NCBI GenBank assembly: GCA_035685905.1
Contig: DASRZY010000280.1
Coordinates: 1-59,007 of the forward strand
Length of the DNA: 59,007 nucleotides
Direction: 5' to 3'
Origin: Syntrophales bacterium
GTDB taxonomy: Bacteria; Desulfobacterota; Syntrophia; Syntrophales; UBA2192
Shown: positions 4,048-58,416 of the stretch, piece by piece
How positions within the stretch are numbered: the stretch's first letter is position 1
Layout: each line of letters starts with the position of its first letter
The notes under the pieces: model-generated
Told to the model about the DNA's origin: nothing
Database searches by the model: none
Seen by the model: only the letters and a program-made list of their open reading frames with translations
Made by a program: the position numbers and the translations under genes

Positions 4048-4104
4048 ACTTGACTCCAAACTCTTTCCTTTTTGCCTGGTCCCTGCACCCCGGTCCCCGG
4101 TCCC

Positions 4105-4392
4105 TTATTCAATGACCTTCGGTACCCGGTAGCAGTTGCCGCTGTCGTCGGGGGCGTTGGCCAGTGATAGCTCCGGGGGGAGCGATTCCCAGACAACGTC
4201 CTCCCGGAAGGCGTTCTGGATGGCAATGGCGTGCGTCTCGGGCTCGACGCCCGTCGTGTCCACTTCGTTGAGTTTCTCCATGTAGAGAAGGATATTGTTC
4301 AGCTGGATGGTGAATTTCTCCTTTTCCTCTTCGCTGAACTCGAGCCGCGCCAGATGGGCCACGTATTCAACCTGATCCTTCGTGATCTTCAC
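4105..4392 (-). CDS. gatC: Asp/Glu-tRNA amidotransferase subunit C
   Basis: 95 aa, MKITKDQVEYVAHLARLEFSEEEKEKF. GTG start with GGAGG 8 nt upstream. Lies directly upstream of gatA. Confidence 0.9.
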   Translation of the reverse strand: MKITKDQVEYVAHLARLEFSEEEKEKFTIQLNNILLYMEKLNEVDTTGVEPETHAIAIQNAFREDVVWESLPPELSLANAPDDSGNCYRVPKVIE

Positions 4393-4460
4393 TCTTCAAT
4401 CCTCCAAGTAATGAAACCGCTTCATCGCGAAGCGGCATTCGATTTCCCTGTTTTCGTTAC

Positions 4461-4486
4461 CCTTTACCCTGGACCCTGAACCCTTT
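4461..4486 (-). repeat. dispersed 26-nt repeat (AAAGGGTTCAGGGNCCAGGGTA..), minus-strand copy
   Basis: The reverse complement, AAAGGGTTCAGGGTCCAGGGTAAAGG, matches 32130-32155 at 24 of 26 positions. Confidence 0.8.
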
Positions 4487-4505
4487 GGCCCGCCGCGAAG
4501 CGGCA

Positions 4506-5718: not shown

Positions 5719-6024
5719 GTGTTCGGAATCGGCATGCAGGAACTGATCATCATTCTCGTCGTGGCGCTCATCTTCATCGGGCCCAAAAAGCTGCCCGATC
5801 TTGCCAAGGCCCTGGGCAAGGGGGTTGCCCAGTTCAAGAATGCCATGGACGACGTGAAGGGCACCTTCGACGAAGGCATCAAGAAGGAGATGACCCAGGT
5901 AAAGGATTCCATTCTCGAGGACAAACCCGAAGTCAAGACGAAGGGAAATGAAGGGGAGACGACAGAACAGAAGCCTGTCGATCCTTACATAGCGGCGGAA
6001 GAGAAGAAAGACAAACCTGCATGA
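5719..6024 (+). CDS. tatA: twin-arginine translocase TatA/TatE/TatB-family protein
   Basis: N-terminus MFGIGMQELIIILVVALIFIGPKKLPDLAKALGKG is canonical for TatA. GTG start with GAGGTG upstream. Confidence 0.85.
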   Translation: MFGIGMQELIIILVVALIFIGPKKLPDLAKALGKGVAQFKNAMDDVKGTFDEGIKKEMTQVKDSILEDKPEVKTKGNEGETTEQKPVDPYIAAEEKKDKPA

Positions 6025-6125
6025 GGATCAAGGCGCAAGGATAAAGGCTAAAGGCCTCGGGTAACAGACGCGAGCCGTTTCTTGCCATAGGTCAGTTGCC
6101 TTTCGCCCTTCGCCATTTTTTTATT

Positions 6126-10964: not shown

Positions 10965-11065
10965 GACAGGATCGAGGCTCGAGGAACGAGAATCGAGGAA
11001 AGCAGAAACGAGACGGGACCGCCGAAGGGCGGCCCGGAATTCATATTAAAGGAAGGCGCGGAAGC

Positions 11066-11551
11066 ATGGACAAGAAAGAAAACGTCATTTCCATCCTGGT
11101 CAACAACAAGCCCGACGTTCTGGCCCGCGTGGCGGGAACCCTCGGCGGCAAGGGGTACAACATCGAGACGCTCTGCGTGGACGTCACGATCAACCCCGAG
11201 GTCTCCAAGATCATCCTGACCACGGTCGGCACGAAGGCCACCGTGCAGAAGATCGAGGCGCAGCTTGCGCGTCTCATCGACGTCATCAAGGTGGAAAACC
11301 TCACCGACGTGGAGACGGTCAAGCGGGAACTGGTGCTGATCCGGATGAGCCTCACGGCGGACAGCAAAAGCGAGTTGATCCGGACGATCAACCAGCTCAA
11401 CTGCAAGATTCTGACGTTCAATTCCGATCACTGCGTCCTGGAGTACAGGGGGAGCAAGGCCGAGGTCGACAAGGTCCTGGAGACCCTGAAGCCTCTCGGG
11501 ATCGACGACATCGCCCGCACGGGCATCGCCGCACTGGAACGCAAGAATTGA
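11066..11551 (+). CDS. ilvN: acetolactate synthase small (regulatory) subunit
   Basis: ACT-domain start MDKKENVISILVNNKPDVLARVAGTLGGKGYNIETL. The upstream part of the 308-aa track ORF is an out-of-frame overlap with ilvB. Confidence 0.9.
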   Translation: MDKKENVISILVNNKPDVLARVAGTLGGKGYNIETLCVDVTINPEVSKIILTTVGTKATVQKIEAQLARLIDVIKVENLTDVETVKRELVLIRMSLTADSKSELIRTINQLNCKILTFNSDHCVLEYRGSKAEVDKVLETLKPLGIDDIARTGIAALERKN

Positions 11552-11557
11552 AAATCA

Positions 11558-11588
11558 GTGGCTAGTGGTTAGTGGCTTGTGTTTCGTG
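11558..11588. repeat. left arm of imperfect inverted repeat (7-nt stutter TAGTGGN)
   Basis: GTGGCTAGTGGTTAGTGGCTTGTGTTTCGTG. By hand count, 24 of 31 positions are complementary to 11696-11726. Confidence 0.75.
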
Positions 11589-11695
11589 CCGGAAAAAAAG
11601 CAGGGGGATATTTGCCCTTTTTTTCGGGCTTGAATTCCGGGCCGCTTTCAACCGCCGTTCAATAGAGCGGCCGGACATTGACGCAAAACTCCCGT

Positions 11696-11726
11696 CACTA
11701 GACACTAGACACGAACCACTAACCAC
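11696..11726. repeat. right arm of imperfect inverted repeat
   Basis: CACTAGACACTAGACACGAACCACTAACCAC. It ends 17 nt before the ilvC ATG. Confidence 0.75.
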
Positions 11727-11743
11727 AAAAGAAGGAGGAACCC

Positions 11744-12787
11744 ATGTCACAGCTCAACATCGGCGGGGTGGTCGAGGAAGTCATCACCTCTGAGGAATTT
11801 ACCCTGGAGAAGGCCCGCAAGGTTCTCAAGGACGAGGTCGTGGCCATCATCGGCTACGGCGTACAGGGGCGCGGCCAGGCGCTGAACCTGCGCGACAACG
11901 GGATCAACGTCATCGTCGGCGAGGAGTACAACACAAAGAAGGCAATCGAAGAAGGCTGGGTCCCCGGCAAGACGCTCTTCCCCCTCATGGAGGCCGCAAA
12001 GCGGGGCACGATCCTGCAGTATCTCATGTCCGATGCCCAGCAGAAGTCCCTGTGGCCCGAGTTGAAGCCCTACCTGACCAAGGGGAAGGCCCTCTACTTC
12101 TCTCACGGGTTTTCCATCGTCTACAAGGAGCAGACGGGCGTGATCCCGCCTGCCGACATCGATGTCATCCTGGTGGCCCCCAAGGGAGCCGGGCGCACCG
12201 TGCGCGACAATTACCTGGCCGGCAGCGGCATCAACTCGAGCTACGCCGTCTTCCAGGACGCAACGGGACGTGCCCTCGAGCGCACACTCGCCGTCGGCGT
12301 GGCCATCGGGTCCGGCTACCTCTTCCCGACGAGTTTCGAGCACGAGGTCTGGAGCGATCTTACGGGCGAGCGCGGCGTGCTGATGGGGTGCCTGGCCGGC
12401 GTCCTCGAGGCCCAGTACAACGAGCTGCGCAAGCACGGCCACAGCCCCAGCGAGGCCTTCAACGAGACCGTGGAGGAGCTCACCCAGAGCCTCATGCCGC
12501 TGGTCGCCCAGAACGGGATGGACTGGATGTACGCCAACTGCAGCACCACGGCCCAGCGCGGGGCCCTGGACTGGAAGGACCGCTTCCGCGATGCCGTGGC
12601 GCCCGTTTTCAGCGAACTCTATGATCGCGTGAAGACCGGCAAGGAGACGGAGATCGTCCTGAGAGTCAACAGCATGCCCGACTACCGGGAAAAGCTGCAG
12701 AAGGAGCTTGACTCGATGCGCAACTCCGAGATGTGGCAGGCCGGCGCCGTTGTGCGGTCCCTCAGGCCGGAGCGGCGCAAGAAATAG
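11744..12787 (+). CDS. ilvC: ketol-acid reductoisomerase
   Basis: IIGYGVQGRGQALNLRDNG NADP-binding motif. GAAGGAGGA RBS. Confidence 0.95.
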   Translation: MSQLNIGGVVEEVITSEEFTLEKARKVLKDEVVAIIGYGVQGRGQALNLRDNGINVIVGEEYNTKKAIEEGWVPGKTLFPLMEAAKRGTILQYLMSDAQQKSLWPELKPYLTKGKALYFSHGFSIVYKEQTGVIPPADIDVILVAPKGAGRTVRDNYLAGSGINSSYAVFQDATGRALERTLAVGVAIGSGYLFPTSFEHEVWSDLTGERGVLMGCLAGVLEAQYNELRKHGHSPSEAFNETVEELTQSLMPLVAQNGMDWMYANCSTTAQRGALDWKDRFRDAVAPVFSELYDRVKTGKETEIVLRVNSMPDYREKLQKELDSMRNSEMWQAGAVVRSLRPERRKK

Positions 12788-12971
12788 AAGTGAGGAAGTG
12801 AAAAAGAGCGGAAGAGCGGCAAAAGACGGAGGAAGGCCCTGACTCTTTATGCGATCTTCTGATCTTCCGCGCTTCCGATCTTCGTAATTTTCAGGGGGAG
12901 GGGGCCGAAGGTTGACCCTCCCTTTGCCTTATGGCATAAAGAGAACATCTGCATCCAAAAGGGAGGGAAAC

Positions 12972-24243: not shown

Positions 24244-24275
24244 CAGTGTCTGAGTGTTTGGGTGCCTGAGTGAAG
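24244..24275. repeat. left arm of imperfect inverted repeat (7-8-nt stutter CTGAGTG)
   Basis: CAGTGTCTGAGTGTTTGGGTGCCTGAGTGAAG. By hand count, 25 of 32 positions are complementary to 24391-24422. Confidence 0.75.
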
Positions 24276-24322
24276 AGGTGAAGATCGGAAAAATACAAGC
24301 CGCGGCAAAAGACTCAAAAAAA

Positions 24323-24357
24323 CCCCCGACATTCCGATACCGGAAGCGGGGGTTTTT
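24323..24357 (+). terminator. intrinsic terminator inside inverted-repeat element
   Basis: CCCCCG-acattccgataccggaag-CGGGGG followed by TTTTT, flanked by extended GGCAAAAG/CTTTTGCC pairing. Confidence 0.6.
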
Positions 24358-24390
24358 CTTTTGCCGTATCCCCGAATGTCGGGCGTTTTT

Positions 24391-24422
24391 CTTCACTCAG
24401 ACACTTAGACACTCAAGCACTC
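24391..24422. repeat. right arm of imperfect inverted repeat
   Basis: CTTCACTCAGACACTTAGACACTCAAGCACTC. Confidence 0.75.
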
Positions 24423-43828: not shown

Positions 43829-43888
43829 CGTTCAGCTTCTATCCTCTTCCCTTGGCTTTTTCCTTTATCCTCGTTCCTCGAACCTGCC

Positions 43889-46619: not shown

Positions 46620-47909
46620 ATGGGCCATATCGCCAACCCCGACAGGGAGTATCGTCTTCTCCAGCAGCGCCTCGACCGCAACGTGACGGGTGCGCCCGAC
46701 TCGCCCCACTTCATCGAGATCCTGAAACTTCTTTTTTCTCCGGAAGAGGCCTCCCTCGCGCGGCAGATCCCGACGCGCTTCGTCACCGTGGGACGGCTTG
46801 CAAGGAAGCTGGGTATGGAGCCCGCCGCTCTCGATGACTGGGTCACCGAGATGGCTCTCCGGGGGCTTGTCATCGACATCGGAAGGGGCGGGCGCCGTTA
46901 CGTGTCGCTTGCTCCCGTCGTCATCGGTTTCTTCGAGTACACCTTCATGCGAGCCGATGACAAACTCCCCTTGAAGGAGCTGGCGCGGCTCTTCGATGCC
47001 TATATGCACGGGAATGACCGTTTCGCCCGGTCCGTCTTTACGGCCGATACGCAGATCGGCCGATCGCTTGTCCGCGAGGAGGCCCTGTCCGAGGGGGACC
47101 ACACGGAGATCCTGGACTGGGAGCGAGCGACCCGGCTCATCGAGTCGGCCTCGTCGGCATCGGTTTCGCTCTGCGCCTGCCGGCACAAGGCCTCCCATCT
47201 CGGGAAGGCCTGCGACAGGCCCATGGAGAACTGCATTGCCCTCAACATGGGGGCGGAGATCCTGGTGAAGAGCGGCTTTGCCCGCCCCGTTTCGACGGCG
47301 GAGGCGCTCACCATTCTCGAGCGGTGCAAGGATCTGGGTCTTGCCCAGACAGGAGACAATGTCCAGCAAAACGCGGCCTACATCTGCAACTGCTGCGGTT
47401 GCTGCTGCGAGATGATGAAGGCCATCCGGGTCATGGGCGTGCGCAATGCGATTGTCACCTCGAACTGGACCGTCGATATCGACGGCGGGAAATGCAGGGG
47501 CTGTGGCAAGTGTGCAAAACTCTGCCCTGTAGATCTGATCGACATGGTCCCCGATGCAGCCCTCGACGGGCAGAAGCCCGTGAAGAGGGCCCGTCACCAG
47601 GGCGAGTTCTGCCTCGGCTGCGGGGTCTGCTGCACAGGCTGCAAGACGGGGGCGATCCGCATGAAGGCCCGTCCCAAGCGGGTGTTCACGCCCGAGACGA
47701 CCTTCGACAAGATCATCGCCATGGCCATCGAGCGCGGCAAGCTCGCCAGCCTCGTGTTCGAGGGCCACGAACACTGGGGCTGGCGCGCCTTCGGTCGCGT
47801 TGCGGCGGTTCTGGAAAATACACCGCCGGCCCGGGCCCTCCTGGCAATCGAACCCCTCCGTTCCGCCTTTTTCGAGGCCGTGGTGCGAAAGGCCAAGCCG
47901 CCCGCCTGA
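46620..47909 (+). CDS. Cys-rich Fe-S protein with 2x[4Fe-4S] ferredoxin domain
   Basis: CACRHK...C, CNCCGCCCEMM, CRGCGKCAKLCP and CLGCGVCCTGC motifs. No precise family assigned. Confidence 0.75.
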   Translation: MGHIANPDREYRLLQQRLDRNVTGAPDSPHFIEILKLLFSPEEASLARQIPTRFVTVGRLARKLGMEPAALDDWVTEMALRGLVIDIGRGGRRYVSLAPVVIGFFEYTFMRADDKLPLKELARLFDAYMHGNDRFARSVFTADTQIGRSLVREEALSEGDHTEILDWERATRLIESASSASVSLCACRHKASHLGKACDRPMENCIALNMGAEILVKSGFARPVSTAEALTILERCKDLGLAQTGDNVQQNAAYICNCCGCCCEMMKAIRVMGVRNAIVTSNWTVDIDGGKCRGCGKCAKLCPVDLIDMVPDAALDGQKPVKRARHQGEFCLGCGVCCTGCKTGAIRMKARPKRVFTPETTFDKIIAMAIERGKLASLVFEGHEHWGWRAFGRVAAVLENTPPARALLAIEPLRSAFFEAVVRKAKPPA

Positions 47910-47974
47910 CACCTCGCAACCCATCAACCCTTCAACCGTTCCCCGCAAAATCATCATAAGAGAAGGAGGTTCCC

Positions 47975-51036: not shown

Positions 51037-51091
51037 TCCACTTCCTCCTCCCACCGGGGGAGGAGAACAGAGGAAAGGGACTTCACAGGGA
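51037..51091 (+). repeat. long imperfect intercistronic hairpin of pyrimidine/purine stutter arms
   Basis: TTCCCCCTCCTCCACTTCCTCCTCCC-accg-GGGGAGGAGAACAGAGGAAAGGGAC. The perfect core is CTCCTCCC/GGGAGGAG. Confidence 0.7.
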
Positions 51092-58345: not shown

Positions 58346-58416
58346 CAGGCGATTGCCTGTTCTTCTCTTTCCTGACGCCGGAAGCCTGATGCCCGACGCC
58401 CGCGGCCTCCCGGCCG

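Follow-up and report, generated by a model that had tools for sequence, protein, structure and literature searches.

The ilvN-ilvC spacer and its operon

The window analysed here, a stretch of 59,007 nt from a Syntrophales bacterium, contains an ilvBNCD operon in which ilvB, ilvN, ilvC, and ilvD each score above the NCBIfam cut-off. The 192-nt spacer between ilvN and ilvC (11552-11743) holds an element with two inverted arms, described here on the forward strand. The left arm (11558-11592) starts 6 nt past the ilvN stop codon TGA (11549-11551) and is a relatively purine-rich series of degenerate heptamers anchored by GTG (GTGGCTA, GTGGTTA, GTGGCTT, GTGTTTC, and a final GTG). The right arm (11692-11726) is pyrimidine/A-rich and consists of CAC-anchored heptamers (CAC, TAGACAC, TAGACAC, GAACCAC, and TAACCAC) that pair with those of the left arm. 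Five nucleotides past it follows the ilvC Shine-Dalgarno sequence AAGGAGG (11732-11738), with the ATG start codon at 11744-11746. Each arm comprises four full units and a partial one. An inverted-repeat search delimits arms of 35 nt each that are 80% complementary and 99 nt apart. For the 31-nt arms proposed in an earlier note on this DNA, where 24 positions had been counted as complementary, our recount gives 24 Watson-Crick pairs and one G-T pair.

Two hairpins occupy the core, as that note had described. Core hairpin 1 (11593-11624; A7, a weak stem, and T7) resembles a terminator, and no other part of the spacer is as well conserved. A consensus scan flags 11602-11619 within it as terminator-like, with five pairs, three of them G-C, and a T7 tail; the scan count is 2, compared to a shuffle mean of 1.6. 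Core hairpin 2 (11637-11674; CCGGGCCGC..GCGGCCGG) lacks a T-run downstream. A small protein encoded in the core was considered and rejected, as neither of the two open reading frames in the spacer matches a Pfam family or is retained in relatives.

Both the inverted symmetry and the periodicity of the spacer lie well outside the range of its dinucleotide shuffles. The inverted-repeat score is 21 (shuffle mean, 7.6; maximum, 14) and the lag-7 periodicity is 20/24 (shuffle mean, 10.2; maximum, 17), and neither value was reached by any of 2,000 shuffles. Lag 7 alone is raised in the arms, with 18/24 and 20/24 matches compared to 5 to 12 at other lags, which agrees with their earlier description as degenerate tandem arrays of words of about 7 nt. 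Neighboring units are about 75% identical and leave two columns free, so that the repeats are degenerate and neither perfect nor near-perfect. The folding energy, a check suggested in the same note, is -73.3 kcal/mol for the spacer RNA (z = -4.15). Covariance models from Rfam, searched against the spacer up to an E value of 1, gave only two chance-level matches to plant miRNAs (E, 0.8 to 0.9). The 17- and 18-mers of the ilvN-ilvC arms have a single occurrence in the genome, and no direct repeat flanks the element despite its inverted arms; the target-site duplication of a MITE is not seen.

Arrays of the same heptamer/octamer class are present in all three intercistronic spacers of ilvBNCD. 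In the 101-nt ilvB-ilvN spacer, a solitary heptamer array of the CGAGG family (10967-11000, forward strand) starts 2 nt past the ilvB stop codon and has no partner arm; it was absent from the sites listed in the earlier note. A G+C hairpin without a T-run lies 3' of this array (approximately 11014-11036). The ilvC-ilvD spacer carries an octamer-array hairpin (12788-12884, forward strand) that begins within the final bases of the ilvC stop codon. Its AAG- and CTT-anchored arms have 8-nt units and occur once in the genome, and its fold has a z score of -2.8. A second hairpin past it (GGGGGAGGG..CCCTCCCTTT, approximately 12893-12927) is conserved in three relatives (L005-L007). The start codon of ilvD is most likely ATG 12973 and not TTG 12912, with the Shine-Dalgarno sequence AGGGAGGG and an N terminus, MRSDLMKKG, that is common to relatives.

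Outside the operon, the architecture recurs between convergent genes at 24244-24422. Octamer-array arms at 24244-24274 and 24391-24421 (8-nt units; fold z = -8.5) surround a bidirectional intrinsic terminator (24317-24358). This site and the ilvC-ilvD hairpin had both been named as recurrences of the ilvN-ilvC architecture and stand as such, with units of 8 nt, whereas a further candidate, 51037-51091, does not belong to the class: its pyrimidine arm comes first and no 7- or 8-nt periodicity was flagged in the scan. A hairpin rich in CCTCC/GGAGG, it is made up of runs that resemble anti-Shine-Dalgarno and Shine-Dalgarno sequences and lies about 25 nt ahead of the next gene. More non-coding heptamer or octamer arrays are found in the window at 4073-4108, 4451-4487, 6024-6057, 43852-43885, 47908-47946, and 58371-58408, with families that include CCCTGnn, AAAGGnn, and CCTCGnn.

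A genome-wide class of periodic arrays

The whole genome (3.34 Mb in 320 contigs, 59% G+C, 100% complete by marker genes) was scanned for arrays, each called as a window with at least 18/24 matches at a given lag. The scan returned 747 lag-7 and 88 lag-8 arrays, compared to one each in a Markov shuffle and 1 to 26 at lags 4 to 6 and 11, which places the recurrence claimed for the architecture far above chance. After merging, 640 arrays remain, built from about 150 different words (CGAGGnn, CAGTGnn, CAGGGnn, AAAGGnn, ACAGCnn, GGAATnnn, etc.). An inverted partner lies within 300 nt of 264 of them, compared to 11 in a control of random genomic stretches. This yields about 182 paired hairpins with a median loop of 23 nt; in 23 of these hairpins the loop exceeds 60 nt. 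A canonical terminator (A-run, G+C stem, and T-run) lies inside at least 12 of these 23 large-core hairpins, and the ilvN-ilvC core, with its A7, 5-bp stem, and T7, contains a weak version. A T-run lies 3' of 20% of the hairpins, compared to 8.5% at random intergenic positions. The class does not consist of plain intrinsic terminators, a possibility that we rejected since only this fifth of the hairpins has a T-run after them.

The arrays follow gene ends. Gene context was taken from a crude home-made gene caller that recovered the ilv genes correctly, so that distances from start or stop codons should be read as approximate. Coding sequence makes up 86% of the genome, yet 89% of the arrays are non-coding. 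Convergent spacers contain 1.84 arrays per kb and tandem spacers 1.45, compared to 0.41 for divergent ones. Hairpins start at a median of 4 nt past the upstream stop codon and end at a median of 38 nt ahead of the next start. Likewise, 228/640 arrays map to the interval from -8 to +10 nt around a stop codon, compared to 54 near a start codon, and TAA accounts for 42% of the array-adjacent stop codons versus 28% genome-wide (p ~1e-7).

Between tandem genes, the purine-rich arm comes first in 107/112 hairpins. We rejected this order as a sign of transcription polarity, as a hairpin of this kind reads identically on both strands. In other words, the purine-first order is a built-in handedness, and bidirectional terminators composed of an A-run, a stem, and a T-run share the handedness of the arrays' hairpins. 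True polarity is given only by solitary arrays. Among the 373 of these, 141 are purine-rich in the sense of the flanking or upstream gene versus 57 of the opposite polarity, and 119 of the 141 lie near a stop codon.

The usual arm has four or five units, and in each word about five letters are fixed and the other two or three are free. Opposing arms pair in 94% of the fixed columns, compared to 43% of the two or three free columns, for which 32% is expected by chance. Since pairing is limited mostly to the fixed columns, the helix alternates between paired blocks of about 5 bp and small internal loops. Arm length is sharply limited. When run lengths were counted without a detection threshold, CGAGG runs of 3, 4, 5, and 6 units numbered 59, 165, 32, and 0, and CAGTG runs numbered 27, 35, 45, and 1. 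The run lengths peak at four to five units and collapse at six or more; free slippage should give a longer tail than we observe.

One family is dispersed in nearly identical copies. The exact CGAGG 23-mer GGTCCGAGGAACGAGGACCGAGG occurs at 41 loci, each time in the left arm of one recurring hairpin, about 75 nt long, that has an A-rich loop and one of a few right-arm subfamilies; many copies directly abut TAA or TAG. No target-site duplications were seen, by inspection, around the 41 copies. Examples lie on one contig at G000:C251:3072, 4127, 7324, 9519, 9601, and 11896, and some copies form tandem doublets. Samples from congeners differ in overall array density, from 3.3 per 100 kb in G045 to 19 in the present genome (G000) and 27 in G004, an approximately eight-fold spread.

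Orthologous spacers and the PF05635 gene

Orthologous spacers were collected via IlvC from Syntrophaceae/Syntrophales metagenome-assembled genomes. The window, L001-L006, and L018 all have the ilvN-ilvC arms, which are absent in L007 and in more distant Syntrophales. The L007 spacer keeps the core motif GGGGGA..TTTGCC..TTTTT, the most conserved part of the ilvN-ilvC spacer, with the arms absent. Similarly, two congeners (G045 and G004) have a terminator orthologous to that at 24244-24422, again with the arms absent. These arm-less orthologous hairpins in relatives suggest that the arms are additions around pre-existing hairpins.

Where the arms are present, the outer helix folds in all eight orthologous spacers, with 77% of the cells paired, compared to at most 49% when the partner is slid. 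Covariation across the eight orthologues amounted to two double-change pairs, no better than in shuffles, so that the search for compensatory changes suggested in the earlier note did not lend support to a selected structure. Mismatches on the transcribed strand likewise give no G:U bias, with 119 G:U and 137 A:C. The arms diverge by 1.4 to 5.7% among four genomes that share one spacer type. Four-fold sites in the neighboring coding sequence (240 nt of ilvN and 300 nt of ilvC) diverge by 7 to 23%; the arms thus change 3 to 6 times less, with Fisher p values of 0.003 to 0.13 per pair for pairs that are not independent. Between L003 and L018, however, the arms diverge as fast as four-fold sites (28% vs 21%). 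The ilvN-ilvC element is under some constraint in part of the genus, and conservation of the arms beyond that of synonymous sites would fit a selected function better than passive persistence.

The spacer and its surroundings also show a mixed ancestry. Between L001 and L003, flanking four-fold sites are 96 to 97% identical, compared to only 66% for the spacers, with 30 gapped columns, and the L003 spacer is similar to the one in L018, a far more remote genome. Between L005 and L006, identity is 97% in ilvN but 82% in ilvC. This mosaic ancestry points to recombination breakpoints at or near the ilvN-ilvC spacer.

The ilvC-ilvD hairpin is shared by the window and L002-L007, where it begins at the stop codon, TAG. 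It is anchored by AAG throughout, with an octamer word that varies by lineage (AAGAGCGG, AAGTTGAG, or AGGGTAAG). The left arm matches its own right arm with scores of 16 to 19, whereas left arms compared across lineages score 8 to 13, which is near random; hence, both arms change in step. Such in-step change is compatible with arm-to-arm copying or with selection for pairing, although the two free columns are accounted for by neither. The earlier idea of a conserved structure with a locus-specific sequence holds for this hairpin, which persists with changed arms, and for the unique arms of the sites listed in the earlier note, but not for the CGAGG family with its 23-mer at 41 loci.

The class may have a protein associate. 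The assembly contains a single gene for a PF05635 four-helix-bundle protein (C6:11912-12160, at locus G000:C6:11816-12165, L081). It is preceded by an ACAGCAG array that itself follows the stop codon of a sugar transferase gene. The gene is truncated by the contig end, so that the expected downstream pyrimidine-rich arm is not assembled. Across many phyla, arrays lie within the 600-nt flanks of 66/80 PF05635-homologous loci, at a density of 0.84 per kb, compared to 0.10 per kb for the 80 ilvC loci. Of the upstream arrays, 34/38 are purine-rich, and of the downstream arrays, 35/43 are pyrimidine-rich; these arrays can reach 10 to 20 units. Within the order, 25/61 genomes carry the gene. Ten gene-bearing genomes had 23 arrays in 397 kb, with at least one array in six of the ten and none in 20 to 40 kb of the other four, compared to one array in 382 kb from eight genomes without the gene; these samples (20 to 60 kb per genome) are small and the genomes related. 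A left arm of the CGAGG family also adjoins the four-helix-bundle gene of a related genome (L082, 497-522). The nearest solved structures, 2gsc (Xanthomonas campestris XCC0516) and 2rld, were deposited with five chains each. The PF05635 protein has no known catalytic domain. No link between it and heptamer repeats was found in the searchable literature. Searches of the assembly, whose marker-gene completeness is 100%, detected neither a Y1 transposase (PF01797) nor a reverse transcriptase.

Probable origin of the element and its place among known repeats

The ilvN-ilvC element is a copy of this genome-wide hairpin-repeat class, and we believe that its arms, placed around an older terminator-like hairpin, probably arose and were homogenized at the DNA level. 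The arms would have been added around a terminator-like hairpin that relatives keep arm-less. The arrays may arise and stay alike in the DNA through slippage of units within an array, together with sequence copying between arms or arrival as a cassette, and the same arms frame PF05635 genes. The arrays would then persist directly after stop codons, where they presumably do least harm. Slippage alone or arm-to-arm copying alone leaves two features unexplained, namely, the same two variable columns in every unit and the barely complementary free positions. Once in place, the arms would allow the ilvBNCD transcript to fold into a bulged helix of about 31 to 35 bp that bridges the ilvN stop codon and the ilvC ribosome-binding site. 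Such a helix would most likely act as a structural barrier or an RNase III site and so separate the decay of ilvBN from that of ilvC(D). RNase III is encoded in the genome, and a role of the bulged helix as a site for this enzyme or as an exonuclease barrier is plausible.

A stronger version of this idea, in line with the earlier note, treats the helix as an intercistronic RNA element in its own right, favored by selection as an RNase III processing site or as a barrier to 3' exonucleases and setting the relative stability and translation of ilvBN, ilvC, and ilvD. It would account for the outer helix in 8/8 arm-bearing spacers (77% paired vs at most 49% slid), for arms that diverge 3 to 6 times less than adjacent four-fold sites in four genomes, for arrays in all three intercistronic spacers of the operon, and for a helix that extends from 6 nt past the stop codon to 5 nt ahead of the Shine-Dalgarno sequence. 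RNase III, moreover, is present in the genome, and it is this enzyme that excises rRNA intervening sequences bearing S23p (PMC4990558). Nevertheless, we consider this version unlikely. Covariation is not significant and a G:U bias is absent, the arms decay in a neutral-like manner between L003 and L018 (28% vs 21%) and are missing from L007 and distant relatives, and array density varies about eight-fold within the genus. The same architecture is found, furthermore, between convergent genes and around terminators, where intercistronic processing is meaningless. Less likely still is an ilv-specific terminator or attenuator in which the A7-hairpin-T7 of the core partially terminates transcription between ilvN and ilvC and the arms modulate the outcome. 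The core motif is indeed the most conserved part of the spacer, is kept in the arm-less L007, and is marked as terminator-like by the consensus scan at 11602-11619, but its stem is weak (five pairs, three G-C) and the scan count of 2 barely differs from the shuffle mean of 1.6. The right arm is made only after the terminator decision, and the arms therefore cannot act in cis during transcription; they are, besides, generic to about 180 sites in the genome.

Another reading takes the element as the gene-less form of a mobile or protein-maintained cassette system comparable to a REP/RAYT "REPtron," in which the Avd-like PF05635 protein would bind the arms, one subunit per unit, and help to spread copies of them to further positions downstream of stop codons and around hairpins. 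We regard this, too, as doubtful. The protein is without a known catalytic domain, the assembly has no Y1 transposase or reverse transcriptase, no target-site duplications mark the 41 copies, and one gene would have to serve about 150 words while the ilvN-ilvC arms are unique in the genome. Arrays near homologues elsewhere can hold 10 to 20 units, and the association itself comes from related genomes and small samples. On the other side, the exact CGAGG 23-mer recurs at 41 loci with right-arm subfamilies, an array precedes the sole PF05635 gene and arms of the same polarity frame homologous loci across phyla, and arrays are nearly confined to gene-bearing genomes in the order sample. The sharp limit of four to five units would match the five chains of 2gsc and 2rld, and the source species of 2gsc, Xanthomonas campestris, is the species in which GGGAATC arrays have been described (PMC4692102). 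Finally, a chance inverted repeat in a long spacer has practically no probability left, given that 0/2,000 shuffles reach either score and that the genome holds 747 lag-7 arrays compared to one in the shuffle.

Possibly, though with low probability in our estimate, the periodic arms are recognition sites of a PF05635/Avd-like protein, one subunit of the pentamer per unit, and arms and protein jointly form an undescribed repeat-spreading system that operates without a HUH transposase and lays arms after stop codons and around terminator hairpins. If so, one-subunit-per-unit binding by the pentamer would explain the limit of four to five units, and spreading driven by PF05635 proteins would account for the bacterial excess of heptamer repeats.

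Several of these observations are new: the apparent gain of arms, at two sites, around hairpins that relatives keep arm-less, the replacement of both ilvC-ilvD arms in step between lineages, and the lower divergence of the ilvN-ilvC arms than of neighboring synonymous sites in four genomes. The four- to five-unit limit of the arms and the partial support for an association of PF05635 with arrays are also of wider interest. Heptamer repeats are among the most over-represented short repeats of bacteria, and the ilvBNCD locus offers a clean natural comparison in an operon that is well understood, with conserved hairpins that do and do not carry arms in close relatives. Such comparisons make two questions testable, namely, whether DNA copying yields the repeats as a by-product or selection maintains them as RNA structures, and whether a protein of the four-helix-bundle type partners with them. 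In annotation terms, the unusual length of the ilvBNCD spacers is explained by the repeats, which probably also underlie many of the 320 contig breaks.

Among known systems, the short tandemly repeated repetitive heptamers (STRR) of heterocystous cyanobacteria, reportedly described by Mazel et al. in 1990, are said to comprise several unrelated heptamer words per genome, to lie in the intercistronic spacers of operons, and to create intergenic regions that vary in sequence yet are structured. The present arrays share with them the several words and the intercistronic placement, but occur in a different phylum. REP/BIME elements are likewise high-copy intergenic hairpins that follow gene ends and avoid divergent promoters, and in REP/RAYT systems a single-copy gene is framed by the same repeats, as is the case here. 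In contrast, our arrays lack a GTAG-type conserved head, their arms are periodic and not a single short palindrome, and no Y1 transposase is present in the assembly; with a reverse transcriptase equally missing, an origin from REP/RAYT, retron, or DGR elements was rejected. Near-identical dispersed copies, as found for REP, are absent for the ilvN-ilvC arms, whereas the CGAGG family has them (41 copies of an exact 23-mer). The earlier view that the element does not behave like REP/MITE families is thus right for the unique ilvN-ilvC arms but too broad for the class, in which other families are dispersed, sit after gene ends, and avoid divergent spacers.

The inverted arms also invite comparison with the S23p-bearing rRNA intervening sequence of Coxiella burnetii, one of a kind that is excised by RNase III (PMC4990558). 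As in these open reading frame-bearing insertions in 23S rRNA, the arms form a long stem around a loop, but the core of our element has no PF05635 open reading frame, it lies in an mRNA spacer instead of an rRNA, and the RNase III cleavage described is that of the intervening sequences. With PF05635-gene loci in general, the element shares inverted periodic arms of which the purine-rich one comes first, and it would represent at most a gene-less form.

The closest counterparts are the heptameric long simple-sequence repeats (LSSR), that is, the GGGAATC arrays of Xanthomonas and the GGGGAYT arrays of Nostoc (Rehm et al. 2015, PMC4692102). GGGAATC arrays and convergent pairs have been described in Xanthomonas campestris, and Xanthomonas genomes contain 70 to 75 convergent heptamer-array pairs each, near the preceding open reading frame (PMC4692102). 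A general excess of heptamer repeats in bacteria was reported by Mrazek et al. (2007), according to the summary in PMC4679880. Like the LSSR, our arrays have tandem 7-nt units, are about 90% intergenic, form inverted pairs, lie much nearer to the end of the preceding open reading frame than to the next gene, and are rare between divergent genes (PMC4692102). The earlier suggestion of a slippage-generated repeat class comes close to this published view of heptamer repeats. Unlike the LSSR, the arrays of this member of the Syntrophaceae use about 150 words in place of one dominant G-rich word and include 8-nt units; the units are degenerate, with five fixed and two free letters, the arms are capped at four to five units, and most words, those of the ilvN-ilvC element included, cannot form G-quadruplexes. 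Hence, the heptamer-array hairpin is of a kind already described as LSSR or STRR, and the ilvN-ilvC element is a degenerate variant of it.
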